A stretch of DNA of 64,000 bases, taken from NCBI RefSeq assembly GCF_002237645.1, contig NZ_MJUZ01000016.1, positions 15-64,014 of the forward strand, given 5' to 3'. Made by a program: the position numbers and the translations under genes. Shown in pieces: positions 1-64,000 of the stretch. The stretch comes from Desulfovibrio sp. MES5. Lineage in GTDB: Bacteria > Desulfobacterota > Desulfovibrionia > Desulfovibrionales > Desulfovibrionaceae. Below the pieces are notes generated by a model. It was not told the DNA's origin, did no database searches, and saw only the letters and a list, made by a program, of their open reading frames with translations. Position 1 is the stretch's first letter. Every line of letters starts with the position of its first letter.

Positions 1-77
1 AGTTGCCAGACCGCAAGTTGTTGTAACAAATCAAAAGGAGTTTTGCTGACGTGCTTAAAGCTTTAAGCTTTACGGAA

Positions 78-100
78 CCCCCCGCCTAGCGGGGGGTTTT
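78..100 (+). terminator. Intrinsic terminator-like hairpin with T-run
   Basis: Stem CCCCCCGC (78-85) / GCGGGGGG (89-96), 3-nt loop, TTTT 97-100. It would serve a plus-strand gene ending at or left of the window edge. Confidence 0.55.
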
Positions 101-55910: not shown

Positions 55911-56056
55911 GACAGTGTTGTCACGAGATGAATTTCCAGTCATATCAGGGAGAACGAACCTTTTATGCAGGAAGTGCACTCTGATGGCGCCCGAGCGGAA
56001 TAAAAGGCGAAGTTCGACGCAGAAATAACTGGAAAGGCGCTCGTGACGACTCTGTC
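55911..56056 (-). mobile_element. Foldback MITE-like element B2 (inverted copy of B1)
   Basis: GACAGTGTTGTCACGAG ... CTCGTGACGACTCTGTC. Its right end abuts or overlaps the nrdJ stop codon at 56056-56058. Confidence 0.6.
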
Positions 56057-58368
56057 TACCCGCAGCGGGAAAAGCCGCATGCAGGGCAGATCAGGCAACC
56101 TTCCTGAAAAACAAGTTTTTCGCCGCAGTCGGGGCAGCAGTTGGCGGCCAGATCACTGACAGTATCCACAACCTCATCTTTCAGGTAGCGCTGCTCCAGC
56201 ACCCAGGCAATGGCGTCAGGAATGGAAAGCAGCAGGCCCTTGCCGCGAAATACGGGATGTTCGCCGCCGATGCCCTTGATCTGCGCCACAACGTCGCGCA
56301 CATGCACGCCGGAGCGCAGCGCCAGAGAAACAAGGCGGCCTATGGCCTCGGCCTTTGCGGTAATGGAGCGGCCGGATTTGCCAATGGTGGCAAAGACCTC
56401 AAAGGGTCTGCCATCCACCTCATTGACTGTAAGATACATGGCCCCAAGGCCCGTTTGCACCTTGCGGGTGAAGCCCTGCACCTCGTCGGGACGCTTGCGC
56501 ACCATAGAAGAAGGAGCCGCGATAGGTGAAGCGGCGGCAGGCGCGCTGCCCTGCTGCCCGGACGTGCCCGCTTCGGGCGCGGATTCGCCGTCCATTTTCT
56601 TCTGTCCCTCGCCAGTGGCGAGCACCTGAATGCTCTTGCAGCCGTCGCGGTATACGGTGACGCCCTTGCAGCCTTCCTGATACGCCAGCCAGTATATTTC
56701 GCGGATGTCCTGCTCTGTGGCGCTGTTGGAAAGATTGACGGTTTTGGACACGGCATTGTCCGTGTGGCGCTGAAAGGCCGCCTGCATGCGCAGATGCCAC
56801 ACCGGCGTTATATCCATAGCGGTCACAAAGACCTTGCGCAGGGGGGCGGGCAGATAGTCCATGCCCTGGATGGAGCCCCTGGCCACCACCGCGTCCATCA
56901 GCTCATGGCTGAACAGGCCCCCGTTCTCAAGCGCTTCCGCAAAATGCGGATTCACTTCCACAAGGCGTTCGCCGTCCAGAATATTGCGTGTAAAGCACAG
57001 GGCAAAAAGCGGTTCCACGCCGGACGAGCAGCCAGCGATGATGGAGAGCGTGCCCGTAGGCGCAATGGTGGTTACCGTGGCGTTACGGTACGGCCCAAGC
57101 TTGCGGCGTCCATACACAGAGGTTTCGTAGGCCGGGAAGGGCCCGCGCTCCTGGGCCAGCAGGGCCGACGCCTTGTGCCCTTCATCCTGCACAAAGGCCA
57201 TGAGCCGCTCGCCAAGGTCAATGCCCTGTTGCGAATCATAGGCCACGCCAAGCTGAAAGAGCAGGTCGGCAAAACCCATAACGCCCAGGCCGATCTTGCG
57301 GTTTTTGCGCACGGTTTCGCTGATGCGGTCAAGGGGAAAGCGCGAGGCGTCAATGACATTGTCGAGAAAGCGCACCGCCAGATGTACGGCATGGCGCAGT
57401 TCGTCCCAGTCTATGCCCTTGGCGACAGGATCCGCATCGTTTTCGTGCCCGGGAACATAAAAACAGGAAAGATTGATGGAACCCAGGTTGCAGGCCTCAA
57501 AGGGCAGCAGAGGCTGCTCGCCGCAGGGGTTGGTTGATTCTATGTCGCCCTGGTCAGGCGTTGGGTTGTCGCGGTTGATGCGGTCCAGAAAGACAATGCC
57601 GGGGTCGCCCGACAGCCAGGCCTTGCGCACCAGCAGGTCAAAAACCTCGCGCGCGGGCAGGCGCTTCATGACCTCGCCGTTGTTGGGGGACACAAGATCA
57701 TACTGCTCGTCCCGCTCCACAGCCTGCATGAAGGCTTCAGTCAGCCCCACGGAAAGATTGAAGTTATTGAATTCGCCTTCTTTTTCCTTGGCGCCGATGA
57801 ATTCAAGAATATCCGGATGGTCCACCCGCAGGATGCCCATGTTGGCTCCGCGCCGGGTGCCCCCCTGCTTTATCTGCTCCGTGGCGGTATTGAAGATGCG
57901 CAAAAAGGACACTGGGCCGGAAGCCACGCCGCCGGTGGAGCCTACCCGGCTGTCTTTGGGGCGCAGCCGAGAAAAGGAAAAACCGGTGCCGCCGCCGGAC
58001 TTGTGGATCATGGCCGCGTACTTGACGGCGTCAAAAATTTCTTCAATGGAGTCGCCCACCGGCAGCACAAAGCAGGCGGAGAGCTGCCCAAGGTCTGTGC
58101 CCGCGTTCATGAGCGTCGGCGAGTTGGGCAGAAACTTCCAGCTGGTCATGAGATCATAAAAATCGCGGGCCAACTGCCCACTCTTCTTGCTGGAGCCCTC
58201 GTACTTTTCTTCTTCAACGGCAATGGCGGCTGCCACGCGCCAAAAAAGATCGCGTGGAGTTTCGACGATCTGTCCGTCCGGTTTTTTGCGCAGATAACGC
58301 TTTTGCAAAACGACTTCGGTATTGGGCTTCAACTGTGGCTCAGGGAGATCTTTGGGCTGTGCGAGCAT
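56056..58368 (-). CDS. nrdJ: Class II (adenosylcobalamin-dependent) ribonucleotide reductase
   Basis: About 770 aa. Active-site region STNPCGEQPLLPFEACNLGSINL and a C-terminal Cys4 zinc ribbon (CPDCG...CPACG). Start uncertain (ATG 58368 or 58425, TTG 58452). Confidence 0.9.
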   Translation of the reverse strand: MLAQPKDLPEPQLKPNTEVVLQKRYLRKKPDGQIVETPRDLFWRVAAAIAVEEEKYEGSSKKSGQLARDFYDLMTSWKFLPNSPTLMNAGTDLGQLSACFVLPVGDSIEEIFDAVKYAAMIHKSGGGTGFSFSRLRPKDSRVGSTGGVASGPVSFLRIFNTATEQIKQGGTRRGANMGILRVDHPDILEFIGAKEKEGEFNNFNLSVGLTEAFMQAVERDEQYDLVSPNNGEVMKRLPAREVFDLLVRKAWLSGDPGIVFLDRINRDNPTPDQGDIESTNPCGEQPLLPFEACNLGSINLSCFYVPGHENDADPVAKGIDWDELRHAVHLAVRFLDNVIDASRFPLDRISETVRKNRKIGLGVMGFADLLFQLGVAYDSQQGIDLGERLMAFVQDEGHKASALLAQERGPFPAYETSVYGRRKLGPYRNATVTTIAPTGTLSIIAGCSSGVEPLFALCFTRNILDGERLVEVNPHFAEALENGGLFSHELMDAVVARGSIQGMDYLPAPLRKVFVTAMDITPVWHLRMQAAFQRHTDNAVSKTVNLSNSATEQDIREIYWLAYQEGCKGVTVYRDGCKSIQVLATGEGQKKMDGESAPEAGTSGQQGSAPAAASPIAAPSSMVRKRPDEVQGFTRKVQTGLGAMYLTVNEVDGRPFEVFATIGKSGRSITAKAEAIGRLVSLALRSGVHVRDVVAQIKGIGGEHPVFRGKGLLLSIPDAIAWVLEQRYLKDEVVDTVSDLAANCCPDCGEKLVFQEGCLICPACGFSRCG

Positions 58369-58548
58369 GGGAATGATAACCTTGTCTTGAAGTTGTGCAG
58401 GGCAAAAACGGTCCTGCGGGACCATGGCCGAGTATACACGCTTGGAGGGCAAATAAAACCCCCCGTGCCCTAACGCTCAGAAATAACAGTCTGAATTAAA
58501 TGACTATACATACTGATAGATATTTTTATTAAGAGCGATTCTCCATAC

Positions 58549-58614: not shown

Positions 58615-61179
58615 TTACGCTTTTTTTCTACCCTTTCCGCCACGCCCTTGCGGCCTGCCGGAGTTACGCGGGGAAAATGGCCGATGCGGAGCCGGAGCAG
58701 CCGGACGGCCCGGATGAGTCGGGCGGGCCGGATGGGCCGAACGCGCCGAGGGGGCCGAAGGAGCAGAACCAGGCCCGGCATGTGACGCCGCCCCAGAACC
58801 AGGCCGCCGCACAATGCGCGCGCCGCTCTTGGCGTCGCGTCGTGCATCCGGGGACACCTGCACCTCAAGCAGACTACCGGACGGCAGCCCTTCGGCATCT
58901 TCCAGCAATAACAGGCCACAGGCGGCACAGGCATAGCGCCCACGGCCCGCAAGACCGGGAACGTCAAAAGCCGCTGTGAGCACACGGGCCTTCATGCTTC
59001 CTGAAGTTTTGCGTCCCTGCTCCTGGCCGGCCGCAACTTCTGGAGCCGCTACGGGCGAAAGCAGGAGCGGCGCAAGGCTCAGACCGCTTTTGCCAAGTCC
59101 GGCATCAGCGGAAAGGTCCTCAAGCCATCTGGGCGCGTCTTCACTGCCAAAGGTAAAGTGACACCAGGTGCGCCCCCCCTGACCGCTCAGCAGCGGACAG
59201 GCCGCCTGATGCGGGCACGGGGCCAGGGCCGTAAGGCCGCCCTCCACTGCCAGATGGCGCAGGTCCATAATGGTGGAACCGCCCAAACGCGTGCCGGGTT
59301 CCACAAAAAGCAGGTTCGGGCCTGCAGGCGGCCCCTCCGCGCCGTCCGTGGCGGGACGGCCATGGCTGCGGAACAGCGGTGCAAGCGCGTCCAGAAAACG
59401 CGCGAGCCGCTCCTGACGGCAATCATCGGGCCGCTCGTCCGGGTCTGCAGACTGGCCTGAATCGGCGCGCCCATCCACATCGGGATCATCCATCCCTCCC
59501 ATCAGGAGGGCATCGTCATCGTCGTAGGAATCAAGAGCGCTGGCGCGCCCGCTTTTTTTGCCGAAACGCAATTCATTGAGCACATTGGCGGCGCTGACCA
59601 GCCAGGGTCGTGCCTGCCCTCCGGCCAGCAACGGCGCGGCCTGACGCGCTGCCTGTTCCAGCGGCGCCCGCACGGTCTGCACCTGCCAGGGCTGATGGAA
59701 TGTCAGGGCTGCCACTTCATGCAACAGGCTGCGTCCCAGTTCCAGCGGCTGCGAGGAACTGTCCAGAGCCAGCACCTGAATGGGAGCCTGCCGCCATTCG
59801 GGGCGGGCCAACCACAGGGCCAAAGGCAGGGTCAGCGGCCCGGAGCCCACATCGAGCAGCAGAGCCTTGCCGCCCTGAGACGCGACGGTCTGCGGGTCAG
59901 GCAGGGGCATTGCCGCCAGCAGGCGGGTGAGCCGCACCAGATTCCAGGGCAGAAAATAGTACAGATACGCGCTGACAAAGGCCGGGGTACTCCAGTAGGG
60001 GCGGTCAAGGGCCGCCCGCTCGGTCGTGAGCAGGCGCGACAGCCGGGCTATGTCGTCAGGCAGAGAACGGCGATGGGCCGCGCTCAGGGGCCACACTCGG
60101 GCCAGCACTTTTGGCAGCTGGTCAAGAATGGCGCGCGCCTCTTCCGTCAAAGGCGGAAACAGCGGCATTGCTCCCTTCCAGGCATTGCCGGAGGTGATTG
60201 CCGGACGCGGAGCACGGGCCGATGCGAATTCCCGCCCATCCCTGTTGGAGCCATCCCTGTTGCGTCCGTCCCTATTAAACCCATCCCTGTTGCGTTCGTC
60301 CCTGTTGAAGCCATCTCTGTTTCTATTCTGACCATCAGCGCGCTCAAAAGCATTCCTTGCGCCGGGTCTTCCTTCGGCAGGCGCGCCCCTTCTGCCGGAG
60401 CGCGGCGCGTCAGAGCGTGGCCTGTCAGAATGCGGCGGACGCGGCCCGTTGTCCTTGCCCCTTCCCCTGCCTGTATTCTGACCCCAGTTCTGGTCTCTGT
60501 CCTGATCTTTATTCCGTCCCCTGTTCTGGTCTCTGTTCTGATCTCTGTCCTGGCCCCTATGCTGACTCCGATTCGAGTCACGCCCCTCGTTGGACCAGTT
60601 TTTGTCAGACCCGTTTTTGCCGGGTCTGCCCTTGTCCTGCTCATATTTTTTGGGCTCATATTTTTTGGCCCCGGATTTTTCGGGCCAAGCCTTTTCGGGT
60701 CTGCCTGTGTCCGCGTGGGATTTGTCCGGACGGCTTCTGTCGGGCCGGGAATGGCCATCGCCACTCTTGTCCTGGTTGGGCCTACCGCTGCGCGAGCCGC
60801 CGGGCTTGCCCGCTCCTGCCCTGTCGGGCCGGGAATGACCTTCGCCGCCCTTGTCCTGATTTGGCCTGCCGCTGCGCGAGCCGCCGGGTTTACCCGCTCC
60901 TGCCCTGTCGGGCCGGGAATGACCTTCACCGCCCCTATCATTGCCGGGTCTGCCACTGCGCGAGTCGCCGGGTTTGCCGCCGGGCTTGCCGCCGGAACGG
61001 GGTGCGCCTGGACGCCCAGGCCTGTCTGCTGGCCTGTCCGCGGATTTGTCCGTTGACCTGTCTGCTGACCTGTCCCTGTCGGCGGGCCTTTTCGCAGGTC
61101 TGTCTGCGGGCTTTTCACGGGAGGCTTCGCCGTTGCGGGAACGGTCCGGACGCGGTTTTTTTCTTTGCTGATCTGACAT
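58615..61179 (-). CDS. Rsm22/METTL17-like class I SAM methyltransferase with ~330-aa repetitive disordered N-terminus and basic C-terminal tail
   Basis: SAM motif LLLDVGSGPLT, family-typical Cys block CPHQAACP...WCHFTF. N-terminus is R/D/G/N/P/K-rich with tandem repeats. The ATG directly follows the upstream TAA. Confidence 0.75.
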   Translation of the reverse strand: MSDQQRKKPRPDRSRNGEASREKPADRPAKRPADRDRSADRSTDKSADRPADRPGRPGAPRSGGKPGGKPGDSRSGRPGNDRGGEGHSRPDRAGAGKPGGSRSGRPNQDKGGEGHSRPDRAGAGKPGGSRSGRPNQDKSGDGHSRPDRSRPDKSHADTGRPEKAWPEKSGAKKYEPKKYEQDKGRPGKNGSDKNWSNEGRDSNRSQHRGQDRDQNRDQNRGRNKDQDRDQNWGQNTGRGRGKDNGPRPPHSDRPRSDAPRSGRRGAPAEGRPGARNAFERADGQNRNRDGFNRDERNRDGFNRDGRNRDGSNRDGREFASARAPRPAITSGNAWKGAMPLFPPLTEEARAILDQLPKVLARVWPLSAAHRRSLPDDIARLSRLLTTERAALDRPYWSTPAFVSAYLYYFLPWNLVRLTRLLAAMPLPDPQTVASQGGKALLLDVGSGPLTLPLALWLARPEWRQAPIQVLALDSSSQPLELGRSLLHEVAALTFHQPWQVQTVRAPLEQAARQAAPLLAGGQARPWLVSAANVLNELRFGKKSGRASALDSYDDDDALLMGGMDDPDVDGRADSGQSADPDERPDDCRQERLARFLDALAPLFRSHGRPATDGAEGPPAGPNLLFVEPGTRLGGSTIMDLRHLAVEGGLTALAPCPHQAACPLLSGQGGRTWCHFTFGSEDAPRWLEDLSADAGLGKSGLSLAPLLLSPVAAPEVAAGQEQGRKTSGSMKARVLTAAFDVPGLAGRGRYACAACGLLLLEDAEGLPSGSLLEVQVSPDARRDAKSGARIVRRPGSGAASHAGPGSAPSAPSARSAHPARPTHPGRPAAPAPHRPFSPRNSGRPQGRGGKGRKKA
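60236..60325 (-). repeat. About 30-bp in-frame tandem repeats encoding (NRDGF/NRDER)-type units
   Basis: Plus strand CCATCCCTGTTGCGTYCGTCCCTRTTRAAS occurs twice with partial units either side. Translated as NRDGFNRDERNRDGFNRDGRNRDGSNRDG. Confidence 0.8.
60737..60985 (-). repeat. 84-bp in-frame tandem repeat, about 3 units (28-aa unit GEGHSRPDRAGAGKPGGSRSGRPNQDKG)
   Basis: Units start at 60737, 60821 and 60905 (exact 84-bp phase). Units 1 and 2 are nearly identical. Confidence 0.9.
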
Positions 61180-63033
61180 TTATGCTCCAAAGCGCATGTG
61201 GCGCAAATAGTTCTGATGAAAATTCTTTTCTTCCACAAGGGGTAGTAGTCGAGCTGTGGCGCACAGTGCGGCCAGGTTTTCGCGCATATGCGCGTTGCGG
61301 GCCAGCAGGGCCGCGCCTTCCAGAGAGGCATTGCCAACAGCCCGCAGGCGCGGGGCCAGAGCCGAAGGCAAAAAGCCCAGCGTTTCAAGGTCGTGCGCCC
61401 GCACGTGTTCGCCCAGAGCGCCCGCCAGACACAGGGCGGCCACATCGCCGGGGGCAAGCCCCGCCGCCGCCAGCAGGCTTTCCAGCGCCAGGGCAAAGGC
61501 TGCCTTGACCTTGAGCAGTTCCTCCACGTCAGCTGCGCACAGCCACATGCCGTGGGGCAGACGCAAACGCATGCCCCCGCTGTCCTTGCCCGGCTCAAGG
61601 CACGCGGCCAGCCTGCGGGCCAGGGGCATGGCCGGAGCGGATTCAAAGCCTCCGTCCTCGCGCACAAGTTTAGTCCGCAGCAGCACGGCCAGCAATGACA
61701 CATAGCCGGTGGCGCTGATGCCCCGCGCCCTGCCGCCTTCCGCCGCCGGGCCCAGAAGCCCGCTGGCGGACGCTTGACGGCTGACAGCCTGACAGGAAGG
61801 ACACGGGCAGTGGCCGCCGTGTTCCCGCAGGTCATCTTCAGGCCGCCGGGCGAAAAAATGCGCCTCAAGGCCTGTGGGTGCAAGGCTGAAATCCGTGATC
61901 ACCCCCGGCCCGGCCAGTTGCCCGCACTGCGGGCCAATGCCCTCAAGGGCCGGGCCCAGCGGCACACTGGCCAGCAAAAGCCTGCCCGCCGCGTCCACAA
62001 GCGCCAGTTCCCCATTGGTGCCAAGATCCGCCAGCACAAAGGGACGCGGCATGTCCCCGGCCAGCAGCGCGGCCAGCCCCGCGCTCACGTCGCCGCCCAC
62101 AAAGGGAGCGGGCAAGGGCGGGATATACACTGGCGGCAGGTAGGGAACATGTACAGTTTCATGCCCGTCATGCGCAAGCCTGTAGGGAGCCGCGCACAGG
62201 CCGTCCACAGGCAGGTCCAGAAAAATGTCCGTCATGGCCGTATTGGCGGCAACGCACAGGCCCTCCACCCGCGCCGCGCCCTTTTGCTCAAGAAAATCCA
62301 CCACGTTTCGCAGGCTGCGCCGCACCAGATGGGACAGCACGCTGCGGCCTTGCGGCTGCCGCGCCACGGCCAGCCGCGACATGATATCCGCCCCGGCCCC
62401 GGCCTGCGGGTTCAGAAAACTGCCCTGCCCCACAGCCTCCGCCGTATTCTCGTTTTCTCCGTCGCTGGAAAGAGCAACGGCGCGCCAGTAAACAGACGTT
62501 GTGCCCAGATCCACAGCCAGGGCCAGCGGAAGGGGCTTTTCCGCCAGGATATCAACTGGGCCGTTTGCCGGTCCGCCTGCCAGAGCGCCCACCGGGCGAC
62601 CAGCCCCTGCCGGGGTTTCAGCCGGGTCGCTGCTGTCCGTCGTGTGCCGCATGTGGCGCTCTGCACGCATGGCGGCAACATCTTCCGGGCCAGACGGCGA
62701 GGCCATGCTTTCCTGTGGCAACTCCAGCGCGAGCTTTTCCCCGTCAGGCACTTGACGGCGGCACGCCAGACGCCAGCCCCCGGCCAGATCACTGGCGGAA
62801 AAAACCTCCGCTTCGGCGGGCAGGGGCGCTGGGGAGTTCGCCACAAAACGCACCCGGCAGCGGCCGCAGCGGCCAAGCCCGCCGCACAGGGGCTGGGGAG
62901 GCGTTTGCCCGGAAAGCCAGATGGCCTGCGAAAGGCTTTGGCCCGGCGCAGCCTCTATTTCAAGGGGCTTTGCGTCCGCGTTTTCCCCAGGAGATGCGGC
63001 AGTTCCGGCAGCGGAAAAAATTTGTAACAGCAT
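61180..63033 (-). CDS. RACo-like protein: N-terminal plant-type 2Fe-2S ferredoxin domain + ASKHA ATPase (DUF4445)
   Basis: CGGLGRCGRCRV cluster motif; ASKHA phosphate motifs LAVDLGTTSV and LADLGTNGELAL. GGAG SD 8 nt before ATG 63033; the track ORF starts at TTG 63063. Confidence 0.8.
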   Translation of the reverse strand: MLLQIFSAAGTAASPGENADAKPLEIEAAPGQSLSQAIWLSGQTPPQPLCGGLGRCGRCRVRFVANSPAPLPAEAEVFSASDLAGGWRLACRRQVPDGEKLALELPQESMASPSGPEDVAAMRAERHMRHTTDSSDPAETPAGAGRPVGALAGGPANGPVDILAEKPLPLALAVDLGTTSVYWRAVALSSDGENENTAEAVGQGSFLNPQAGAGADIMSRLAVARQPQGRSVLSHLVRRSLRNVVDFLEQKGAARVEGLCVAANTAMTDIFLDLPVDGLCAAPYRLAHDGHETVHVPYLPPVYIPPLPAPFVGGDVSAGLAALLAGDMPRPFVLADLGTNGELALVDAAGRLLLASVPLGPALEGIGPQCGQLAGPGVITDFSLAPTGLEAHFFARRPEDDLREHGGHCPCPSCQAVSRQASASGLLGPAAEGGRARGISATGYVSLLAVLLRTKLVREDGGFESAPAMPLARRLAACLEPGKDSGGMRLRLPHGMWLCAADVEELLKVKAAFALALESLLAAAGLAPGDVAALCLAGALGEHVRAHDLETLGFLPSALAPRLRAVGNASLEGAALLARNAHMRENLAALCATARLLPLVEEKNFHQNYLRHMRFGA

Positions 63034-63135
63034 GGGTATCGCTCCGGATGTAGCCTGCCTCAAGGGGCCATGGTTGGCAAGAAAAAGGCGTGCGCAACGC
63101 CGCCGCGCTGCCCCCCTTGCCCGCGCTTGTCAAAA

Positions 63136-63151
63136 TGGCCTTTTTCTTGCA
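63136..63151 (+). promoter_or_regulatory. Candidate sigma54 (-24/-12) promoter upstream of fliM
   Basis: TGGCCT-TTTTC-TTGCA with canonical GG-N10-GC spacing, 66 nt upstream of ATG 63217. Confidence 0.5.
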
Positions 63152-63216: not shown

Positions 63217-64000
63217 ATGAACAAAGTTTTGGCGCAAGATGAAGTGGATGCCCTGCTTCGCGGGCTTTCCGGCGGCGAAATTGAGAGCGAAGTTGAGGTT
63301 CCGGAAGACGATTCCGGCATTGTGGCCTTTGACCTTGCCAATCAGGACCGCATCATACGCGGGCGCATGCCCGTGCTTGAAATCGTCAATGACCGTTTCG
63401 CCCGGCTTTGCACCAACGCCCTTTCCAACTCCGTGCGCAAGCGCGTTGAACTGAATCCCATATCCATTGATATGACCAAGTTCGGCGAGTTCATGCGCTC
63501 TTTGCCCGTGCCCACGTCCATCAACATCTTCAAGATGGATCCCCTGCGCGGCAATGCCATCATGGTGGTGGACTCCCGTCTGGTCTTTGCCCTGGTGGAA
63601 AGCGTCTTTGGCGGCGCTGGCTCCCAACCCAAGGTGGAGGGTCGCGAATTCACCCGTATCGAGCAGGCCGTGGTGGACAAGATCGTCAAGATCGCCCTGG
63701 AAAATATGGAAGAATCCTGGCGGCCCGTACACGACGTGAAGCTGGAACTGGTGCGCAGTGAAATCAATCCGCAGTTCGCCGCCATTGTTCCGCCCAGCGA
63801 CGTTGTTGTCGTCATCACCTTTGAGGTCGAGCTTGATACGGCCCTGGGCTCCATGATCATTTGCCTGCCCTATGCCACCATCGAGCCTATCCGCTCCAAG
63901 CTGCACGCCAGCTTTCAGACGGAACGCCTTGAAGTGGACCACGCCTGGGTGGCGCGCCTCAAGGAGCGCCTGCTGGAAACCCCCATTGAACTCAAGGTGC
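63217..64000 (+). CDS. fliM: Flagellar motor switch protein FliM (5' part; runs off the window)
   Basis: Not in the ORF track because no stop falls in the window. My translation from ATG 63217 reads MNKVLAQDEVDALLRGLSGG...AFDLANQDRIIRGRMPVLEIVNDRFAR...LVFALVESVFGGAG, a classic FliM N-terminus (CheY-P binding LSQDEIDALL-like motif). Confidence 0.85.
   Translation, partial: MNKVLAQDEVDALLRGLSGGEIESEVEVPEDDSGIVAFDLANQDRIIRGRMPVLEIVNDRFARLCTNALSNSVRKRVELNPISIDMTKFGEFMRSLPVPTSINIFKMDPLRGNAIMVVDSRLVFALVESVFGGAGSQPKVEGREFTRIEQAVVDKIVKIALENMEESWRPVHDVKLELVRSEINPQFAAIVPPSDVVVVITFEVELDTALGSMIICLPYATIEPIRSKLHASFQTERLEVDHAWVARLKERLLETPIELKV

Follow-up and report, generated by a model that had tools for sequence, protein, structure and literature searches.

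Two protein families that are known separately meet in the locus described here. The first contains the activator RACo of Carboxydothermus hydrogenoformans (PDB accession code: 3ZYY; complex with CoFeSP: 4C1N) and the AcsV family, and the second contains mitochondrial METTL17 and Rsm22 (PDB accession codes: 8CSP-8CSU, 8OM2). In the 64,000-nucleotide (nt) stretch of Desulfovibrio sp. MES5 DNA that we analyse (contig NZ_MJUZ01000016.1, positions 15 to 64,014 of the forward strand; called the window from here on), a gene for a RACo-like protein at 61180-63033 lies upstream of a gene for an Rsm22-like protein at 58615-61179, both on the minus strand. Both families had been described before, and so had the probable function of the RACo-like protein; what appears to be new is the conserved, translationally coupled pairing of the two. 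The best reading that we can offer, and one to which we give about even chances, is that a reactivase for the cobalamin of MetH is co-expressed with an iron-sulfur (Fe-S)/S-adenosylmethionine (SAM) protein that is probably directed at RNA.

The closest genetic information on the RACo-like protein comes from RamA-like proteins of the same Pfam family that are implicated in MetH reactivation (Dde_2711, DvMF_1398 and PGA1_c15200/SPO2041). In D. alaskensis G20, where MetH has no activation domain, mutants in the ferredoxin-domain protein Dde_2711 are rescued by methionine (PMC4045070); this protein has been called RamA-like, and its cofitness with MetH is r = 0.90 (Price et al., PMC5764234). For DvMF_1398, a DUF4445 protein of D. 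vulgaris Miyazaki, the cofitness with a MetH that is again without the activation domain is r = 0.92 (PMC5764234). The hosts of both proteins and the organism of the window belong to one taxonomic family. DUF4445 proteins have been inferred to reactivate B12 in diverse bacteria (PMC5764234), a step that GapMind includes among its pathways, and the RamA-like proteins of marine Alphaproteobacteria are likewise associated with corrinoid methyltransferases (PMC12478193). These papers do not mention an Rsm22-like neighbour: the adjacent gene is absent from the methionine genes reported in PMC4045070 and PMC5764234, and in the Roseobacter group the second co-occurring factor is DUF1638, not Rsm22 (PMC5764234). 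Going by this literature on relatives, methionine rescue together with MetH cofitness in two Desulfovibrionaceae species indicates that a corrinoid client of the RamA-like activase, encoded elsewhere in the genome, therefore exists in these organisms. The first-pass annotation of the window had proposed that an Rsm22-like enzyme takes the place of a corrinoid protein as the partner of the RACo-like protein; given the methionine auxotrophy of Dde_2711 mutants and the tie of DvMF_1398 to MetH, such an exchange of clients is not supported.

A different solution to the same presumed task, that of bringing Co(II) back into the cycle, is E. coli MetH's activation domain (PF02965), which works with flavodoxin. 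This domain uses SAM, which the Rsm22-like product probably binds as well. Its fold, however, is unrelated to that of either protein of the pair, it is driven by SAM methylation and not by ATP hydrolysis, and neither protein has a Pfam match to PF02965.

For the second family, the structural information comes from mitochondria. In human METTL17 the residues C333, C339, C347 and C404 hold a [4Fe-4S] cluster (PMC11046306), and yeast Rsm22 binds a [4Fe-4S] cluster in vivo (PMC12375894). The cluster is needed for protein stability and mitoribosome assembly, with no redox turnover reported (PMC11046306, PMC12375894), and the METTL17 family is described as having no radical SAM CX3CX2C motif (PMC11046306).

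We turn to the locus itself. The RACo-like gene, which we assign as a RACo/RamA-type reductive activase gene from its open reading frame (ORF), its Pfam and PDB matches and an exact protein match, encodes 617 amino acids (aa). It starts with the ATG at 63033, 11 nt downstream of a GGAG, while the mechanical ORF extends up to a TTG at 63063, and it ends with the TAA at 61180-61182. The product is identical to OXS29247.1 from the metagenome-assembled genome of Desulfovibrio sp. MES5, annotated as "FeS-binding protein". The Rsm22-like gene encodes 854 aa, and its product is identical to OXS29246.1, annotated as "hypothetical protein". On the minus strand the junction between them reads ...CGC TTT GGA GCA TAA ATG TCA..., with the TAA at 61182-61180 and the ATG at 61179-61177, and the gap of 0 nt that the first-pass annotation had described is confirmed. 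A Shine-Dalgarno-like GGAG at 61188-61185 falls within the last codons of the RACo-like gene, which gives a coupling junction GGAGCA-TAA-ATG at 61177-61188 (-), with the stop and start abutting as they also do in many other species. The terminator claimed to follow the pair is found as well, 40 nt past the Rsm22-like stop, as a hairpin of 8 pairs, 5 of them G-C, and a T-run (CCCCCGTGCGCTTTGTGGGGG then TTTTTTGTAT, 58575-58545, minus strand). A scan of the whole region gives 8 such matches when 6.3 are expected from shuffled sequence, which is no excess, so only the position and strength of this hairpin favour it, and we call it terminator-like on those two grounds.

The next question is whether the pair exists outside this strain. 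A family-alignment scan with one genome per GTDB species yields 461 relatives of the Rsm22-like protein, and the best 80 of these loci were examined; all are from Desulfovibrionaceae save two contigs labelled as other taxa, which we take to be mis-binned. A RACo-like gene is upstream on the same strand in 72 of the 75 loci that have enough upstream DNA, down to about 35% identity, and it is directly upstream in 71 of them, an AAA-ATPase gene standing between the two in the remaining locus (L058). The pairing is thus not specific to the strain, which was the conservation test set beforehand. Of 76 loci, 29 have 0 nt between the RACo stop and the first Rsm22-like ATG, 50 have no more than 4 nt and 66 no more than 30 nt; several seeming outliers turn out to be gaps of 1-2 nt when inspected. 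The C-terminal ..MRFG(A/V)* of the RACo-like protein, which encodes the GGAG, is conserved across species. The pair also occurs in Maridesulfovibrio and Fundidesulfovibrio, where the genes overlap by 11 nt, and in Nitratidesulfovibrio, which by the naming in PMC13043603 would be the genus of the D. vulgaris strains.

The flanks of the pair are far from constant. On the 5' side there is, by clade, fliM, cbiK or an NlpC/P60 gene; on the 3' side, 29 of the 80 species loci have nrdJ, and outside the gut Desulfovibrio clade lipB-lipA come directly after the pair, in Nitratidesulfovibrio, Maridesulfovibrio and Fundidesulfovibrio as well as in 17 metagenome loci. That the pair persists through several such rearrangements argues for selection on the co-expression of the two genes. 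The arrangement exceeds what chance would give, and we read it as a two-gene operon maintained as a unit in Desulfovibrionaceae.

The RACo-like protein shares with RACo and the AcsV family the three-part architecture of a [2Fe-2S], a middle and an ASKHA domain. The N-terminal plant-type [2Fe-2S] ferredoxin domain (62758-62976, minus strand, as are all the features that follow) matches Fer2 weakly (E 6.7e-4, 20 bits against a cut-off of 21) and aligns to RACo residues 14-94. The middle domain (Raco_middle, PF17651, 79 bits; 62068-62523) opens with the ASKHA phosphate-1 motif AVDLGTT, and the ASKHA ATPase domain (RACo_C_ter, PF14574, 127 bits; 61189-62037) carries the motifs LADLGTNGE and GPALEG; both scores are far over the cut-off. 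Among solved structures the closest is RACo itself, the activator of CoFeSP (3ZYY, E 4e-30), in an alignment that spans all three regions. Among 25 homologues the ferredoxin residues Cys50, Cys56, Cys59 and Cys91 are invariant, and the three ASKHA motifs and the C-terminus ..MRFGA are conserved; the cluster cysteines and the phosphate-binding motifs are common to this protein and the C. hydrogenoformans RACo. The NCBIfam equivalogs score it far under their cut-offs, with 117 against 800 bits for AcsV/RACo (NF040756) and 70 against 500 bits for RamA (TIGR04270), which makes it a separate branch; on this sequence basis the protein is a separate subfamily within the RACo/RamA superfamily.

Other features also set it apart from RACo/AcsV. 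It has a long linker of low conservation (residues ~110-165) and, in the ASKHA domain, a CPCPSC (C-x-C-x2-C) insertion (residues 409-414; window 61792-61809); the insertion is present in about half of the 25 homologues and gapped in the others, and it could be an extra, lineage-specific metal site. Its gene, unlike those of RACo/AcsV, is not beside genes for corrinoid/Fe-S proteins: around it stand the Rsm22-like gene, nrdJ and fliM, with no adjacent gene for a corrinoid-binding methyltransferase.

Membership of the Rsm22-like protein in the Rsm22/METTL17 family is well supported at the level of both sequence and fold. The Pfam profile Rsm22 (PF09243) gives 56 bits against a cut-off of 23; the match covers only profile positions 136-186, and homologues of the protein span positions 6-230. 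The conserved core, residues 334-790 (58810-60180), is made of a helical N-domain, a class I SAM-methyltransferase fold and a C-terminal beta domain, as delineated from the alignment and from an AlphaFold2 model with a predicted local distance difference test score (pLDDT) of 82 and a predicted template modelling score (pTM) of 0.82. Searched against the PDB with Foldseek, this model finds human METTL17 chains as its best matches (E 2e-11 to 5e-10), with the next methyltransferases at about 1e-4. The family profile of the core with 35 diverse homologues (alignment A1; more distant members are in A2 and A3) finds, in the PDB, METTL17 at 2e-7 and yeast Rsm22 at 4e-6. The distance to the mitochondrial proteins is nonetheless large, with ~16% identity in the structural alignment and TM-scores of 0.4-0.57.

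What is common to the two sides is PF09243, the class I SAM fold with motif I, and a four-Cys set of the form C-x5-C-x(n)-C...C. The SAM motif I LLLDVGSGPLT lies at 59830-59862, with D443 and G447 invariant and G445 nearly so (D110, G114 and G112 in core numbering); in A1 the segments LDVGSGPL, ALDSS (the acidic residue after strand 2), NVLNE and EPGTR are invariant or nearly so. The Cys block CPHQAACP-x11-WCH (CPHQAACPLLSGQGGRTWCH, 59158-59217) supplies Cys655, Cys661, Cys673 and His674, all invariant in A1, A2 and A3, and this block and the SAM motif are both present as first reported. In the Y-x-C of RYAC, also invariant in the three alignments, Cys751 (58927-58929) is the probable fourth cluster ligand, coming from the C-terminal domain. 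The first two cysteines of the block align with PCPHELPCP of human METTL17, and the set C655-x5-C661-x11-C673 plus C751 corresponds to the C-x5-C...C...C set of METTL17, with a spacing of x11 here versus x7 there. For the mitochondrial proteins, cluster and ribosome binding are known; for the bacterial members both are predicted. The protein is not a radical SAM enzyme by the usual marks: Pfam gives no PF04055 match, and the spacing is C-x5-C-x11-C and not CX3CX2C.

Unlike METTL17/Rsm22, this bacterial protein has Arg-rich disordered tails that vary in length and position. In the window the N-terminal extension, rich in Arg, Gly and Asp (residues 1-333; 60181-61179), has an isoelectric point (pI) of 11.2 and a net charge of +33, and the C-terminal Pro/Ala/Arg-rich tail (residues 791-854, 64 aa; 58618-58809) has a pI of 12.0. 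Tails of this kind, reaching 615 aa, are found in homologues too, at either terminus or at both. The tandem-repeat periods in the DNA of the extension (12, 15, 18, 30, 36 and 84) are every one a multiple of 3, and in relatives no further stop interrupts the frame between the RACo stop and the core, be the extension as short as 9 or as long as 376 aa, both of which indicate that the tails are translated. Their composition, together with the mitochondrial homologues, suggests RNA binding. An acidic, Asp-rich insertion of 41 aa within the methyltransferase domain (residues 542-582, 59434-59556, pI 4.05) is disordered in the model, with a pLDDT below 50, and is missing from most homologues.

To see where the pairing ends, we consider a metagenome scan that started from the most divergent Rsm22-like members. 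The RACo-like gene is directly upstream in 35 loci. In 20 near-identical loci from the human gut, which we take to be Bilophila-like, the order is RACo-like, pgk, Rsm22-like, with pgk inserted between the two genes (contigs L092-L118); in another contig (L132) pgk precedes the Rsm22-like gene and the 4.4 kb upstream contain no RACo-like gene. In eight loci the upstream DNA spans 2 kb or more and is free of a RACo-like gene; the neighbours that could be identified there are dnaJ, pgk, an SLT transglycosylase, an aldose epimerase and an HD-domain gene. Among the divergent representatives, the order is rpoZ-dnaJ-Rsm22-like twice (L087, 2210-5455; L169, 5585-8377; gaps of 5-7 nt by the gene calls) and hom-usp-Rsm22-like once (L170, 2053-5572, behind a homoserine dehydrogenase and a Usp gene and with nifU-nifS nearby), and one more locus is without the RACo-like gene; dnaJ is also just upstream in L089. 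The four Cys are retained in these unpaired divergent members (A3), and one Mailhella member is found among the clusters of unpaired divergent relatives.

A further look at the association gives no sign of fusion. The first-pass annotation had asked for gene fusions of DUF4445 with the Rsm22 family; among ~360 listed homologues there is no protein that combines PF09243 with PF14574, the extensions of ten long Rsm22-like homologues are only of low complexity, and a stop codon separates the two genes in all 76 loci. Mirror-tree correlations between RACo-like and Rsm22-like proteins are 0.85-0.90. With NrdJ as control the partial correlation is 0.61 for RACo-Rsm22 versus 0.57 for Rsm22-NrdJ, which makes the signal unspecific; FliM is a poor control.

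We can now set out the favoured reading in full. The RACo-like activase would use ATP to bring MetH-bound cob(II)alamin back to the cob(I)alamin state, in line with the literature on its relatives, and its most likely client would be the cobalamin of a MetH that has no activation domain of its own and is encoded elsewhere. The Rsm22-like protein would most likely have RNA or the 30S subunit as its binding target and be either an assembly factor or an rRNA methyltransferase. Ribosomes that finish the RACo-like gene would reinitiate on the Rsm22-like gene at GGAG-TAA-ATG, and the two proteins would thereby be co-produced. The link would be physiological and not a swap of clients: MetH feeds SAM synthesis, the Rsm22-like protein is predicted to bind SAM, and the coupling may tie the supply of methionine and SAM to a SAM-binding, growth-related protein; in other genera the operon goes on into lipB-lipA. 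The place of unpaired divergent members after rpoZ-dnaJ, which is a housekeeping context, is in favour of this reading.

Several points weigh against it. We infer the orthology of the RACo-like gene to Dde_2711 and DvMF_1398 from the family and taxon that they share and from Nitratidesulfovibrio having this pair too; the Miyazaki protein is not part of the 90% cluster to which the Nitratidesulfovibrio protein belongs, and DVU0908 is, judging by gene order, probably the orthologue. No MetH candidate is seen in the ORF map of the window, a map that was not fully scanned with Pfam. We know of no bacterial Rsm22-family protein with a demonstrated substrate, and the case for RNA binding is made by tail composition and mitochondrial homologues only. 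Finally, a coupling so tightly conserved is more typical of the subunits of a complex, and a direct interaction of the two proteins is quite possible. The tight coupling thus keeps two models of direct interaction alive, one with redox activation of the cluster and one with a role in MetH reactivation.

The redox model makes the RACo-like ATPase a dedicated or dual-purpose enzyme that reductively activates or repairs the metal centre of the Rsm22-like protein, passing an ATP-driven electron from its [2Fe-2S] cluster to the [4Fe-4S] cluster. Family-wide adjacency and stop/start coupling suggest stoichiometric co-production of the kind seen in complex subunits, the four Rsm22-like cysteines are invariant, there is no corrinoid protein gene beside the activase, and a class of ATP-driven metallo-ATPases that have Fe-S clients is known (PMC7317905). 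Precedents for energising an electron toward an Fe-S client, in the manner that the redox model would require, are the activators of benzoyl-CoA reductase and 2-hydroxyacyl-CoA dehydratase, which are ASKHA proteins with a bridging [4Fe-4S] cluster (PMC7317905); these, however, are of another ASKHA subfamily and cluster type and are not homologous at the level of RACo_C_ter. We still regard the model as unlikely. Genetics in two Desulfovibrionaceae gives the RamA-like gene a methionine-rescued, MetH-like phenotype with the neighbour unreported, and the characterised RACo/RamA relatives in the cited literature act on corrinoids (PMC5764234, PMC12478193). The insertion of pgk in the Bilophila-like loci, the related Rsm22-like genes that have no adjacent RACo-like gene, the want of fusions among the homologues and loci examined, the unspecific mirror-tree signal, and a METTL17/Rsm22 cluster whose reported role is stability and mitoribosome assembly, with no redox turnover, all point the same way. 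It would be rather improbable, in our estimate, that the RACo-like ATPase serves a second, non-corrinoid client by docking on its METTL17-like partner and driving an electron into the [4Fe-4S] cluster at the expense of ATP, for re-reduction or repair or for a reductive, non-canonical SAM reaction on RNA. Of the first interpretation of this locus, then, the domain calls (borne out by Pfam and by the structure matches), the conserved coupling and the four METTL17-type cysteines stand; the exchange of clients is not supported, and the missing fusions, the unpaired relatives and the pgk insertion speak against it.

In the model that places both proteins in MetH reactivation, the Rsm22-like protein would be an accessory of the reaction or, alternatively, an electron relay to the activase through its [4Fe-4S] cluster. 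It draws on the operon coupling with a presumed MetH reactivase, the invariant SAM motif, the short Desulfovibrio MetH without a SAM-using activation domain (PMC4045070, PMC5764234), and a one-carbon and B12 context (lipB-lipA, cbiK, cobS and cobO, with hom beside a divergent member). We consider it very unlikely: the two genetic screens named the RamA-like gene only and not its neighbour, there is no Pfam similarity to PF02965, the nearest fold is that of a ribosome-binding protein, the Arg-rich tails point to RNA, and unpaired members stand after rpoZ-dnaJ. ATP-driven activases, moreover, should not need SAM, and methyl-tetrahydrofolate can methylate Co(I). It is also doubtful, to a degree between these two models, that no functional link exists at all and that the adjacency is synteny inherited in one family, the tight junction being compact gene packing. 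Every paired locus with a named taxon is from Desulfovibrionaceae, which makes the cases not independent, divergent relatives are unpaired, and the mirror-tree test is unspecific; yet the pair outlives several rearrangements of both flanks, and the junction is 0-4 nt in 50 of 76 loci, to ~35% identity, despite an extension that varies from 9 to 376 aa. The co-expression of a MetH reactivase with a probably RNA-directed partner stays the reading that we prefer.

That the partnership had not been described, as the first-pass annotation supposed, agrees with our literature search, which found no link of RACo, DUF4445 or ASKHA proteins with Rsm22. To our knowledge no function has been assigned to the Rsm22/METTL17 homologues of bacteria, and what the mitochondrial cluster does is still debated. 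A family-wide operon with an ATP-driven low-potential reductase offers a genetically tractable place to ask whether that cluster is redox-active. If the RACo-like ATPase did have a second client, a RACo-type activase would for the first time have an Fe-S client, and the function of the METTL17/Rsm22 cluster would be redox and not purely structural. The pair also lets one ask whether methionine/SAM regeneration and ribosome maturation communicate, in a group (Desulfovibrio) for which RB-TnSeq libraries exist. If there is only co-regulation, the gain is in annotation, with OXS29247.1 as a probable MetH cobalamin reactivase and OXS29246.1 as a METTL17-like Fe-S/SAM protein.

Around the pair there are further observations on the neighbouring genes. 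In the window, nrdJ, a B12-dependent class II ribonucleotide reductase with a TSCPD domain, is at 56056-58452 (-), and the terminator-like hairpin and a promoter-like site at 58503-58532 (-) stand between it and the pair. The earlier doubt that nrdJ is tied to the pair is upheld by this arrangement, by its presence in a minority of the species loci and by lipB-lipA taking its place in other genera and in metagenomes. The lipB-lipA genes themselves are at 13004-14498 in L083, 11429-12890 in L084 and 11170-12709 in L085, and in the last of these the RACo-like gene, the Rsm22-like gene, lipB and lipA all overlap or abut. The ancestral unit may have been a four-gene operon in this order. Such an extension would serve glycine cleavage, a source of one-carbon units in Desulfovibrio. 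Cobalamin genes (a cobO-type adenosyltransferase, cobS and cbiK) are near the pair in three genera (L001, 726-1229; L083, 2264-3019; L084, 7535-8332), and in Maridesulfovibrio cbiK is directly upstream of it; these weakly favour a corrinoid function for the activase.

As for a methionine, SAM or B12 riboswitch or leader RNA ahead of the RACo-like gene, the window has no Rfam match to one at the gathering threshold, and in the leader there are only chance-level matches at E up to 10. A conserved intergenic block, considered as a leader element of the RACo-like gene, was rejected for that role and fits instead a sigma-54 promoter for the divergent fliM. The sequence TGGCCTTTTTCTTGCA (63136-63151, plus strand), upstream of the fliM ATG at 63217, has the sigma-54 -24/-12 spacing TGGC-N8-TTGC. 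The block around it is invariant in ten species whose intergenic region otherwise varies, and it is probably the fliM promoter. At the far end of the window, positions 1-98 (-) match the Hfq-binding small RNA STnc490 of Rfam (88 bits, E 6.5e-16); the match is cut by the window edge and is unexpected in a Desulfovibrio contig, and the family is associated with IS200-type elements.

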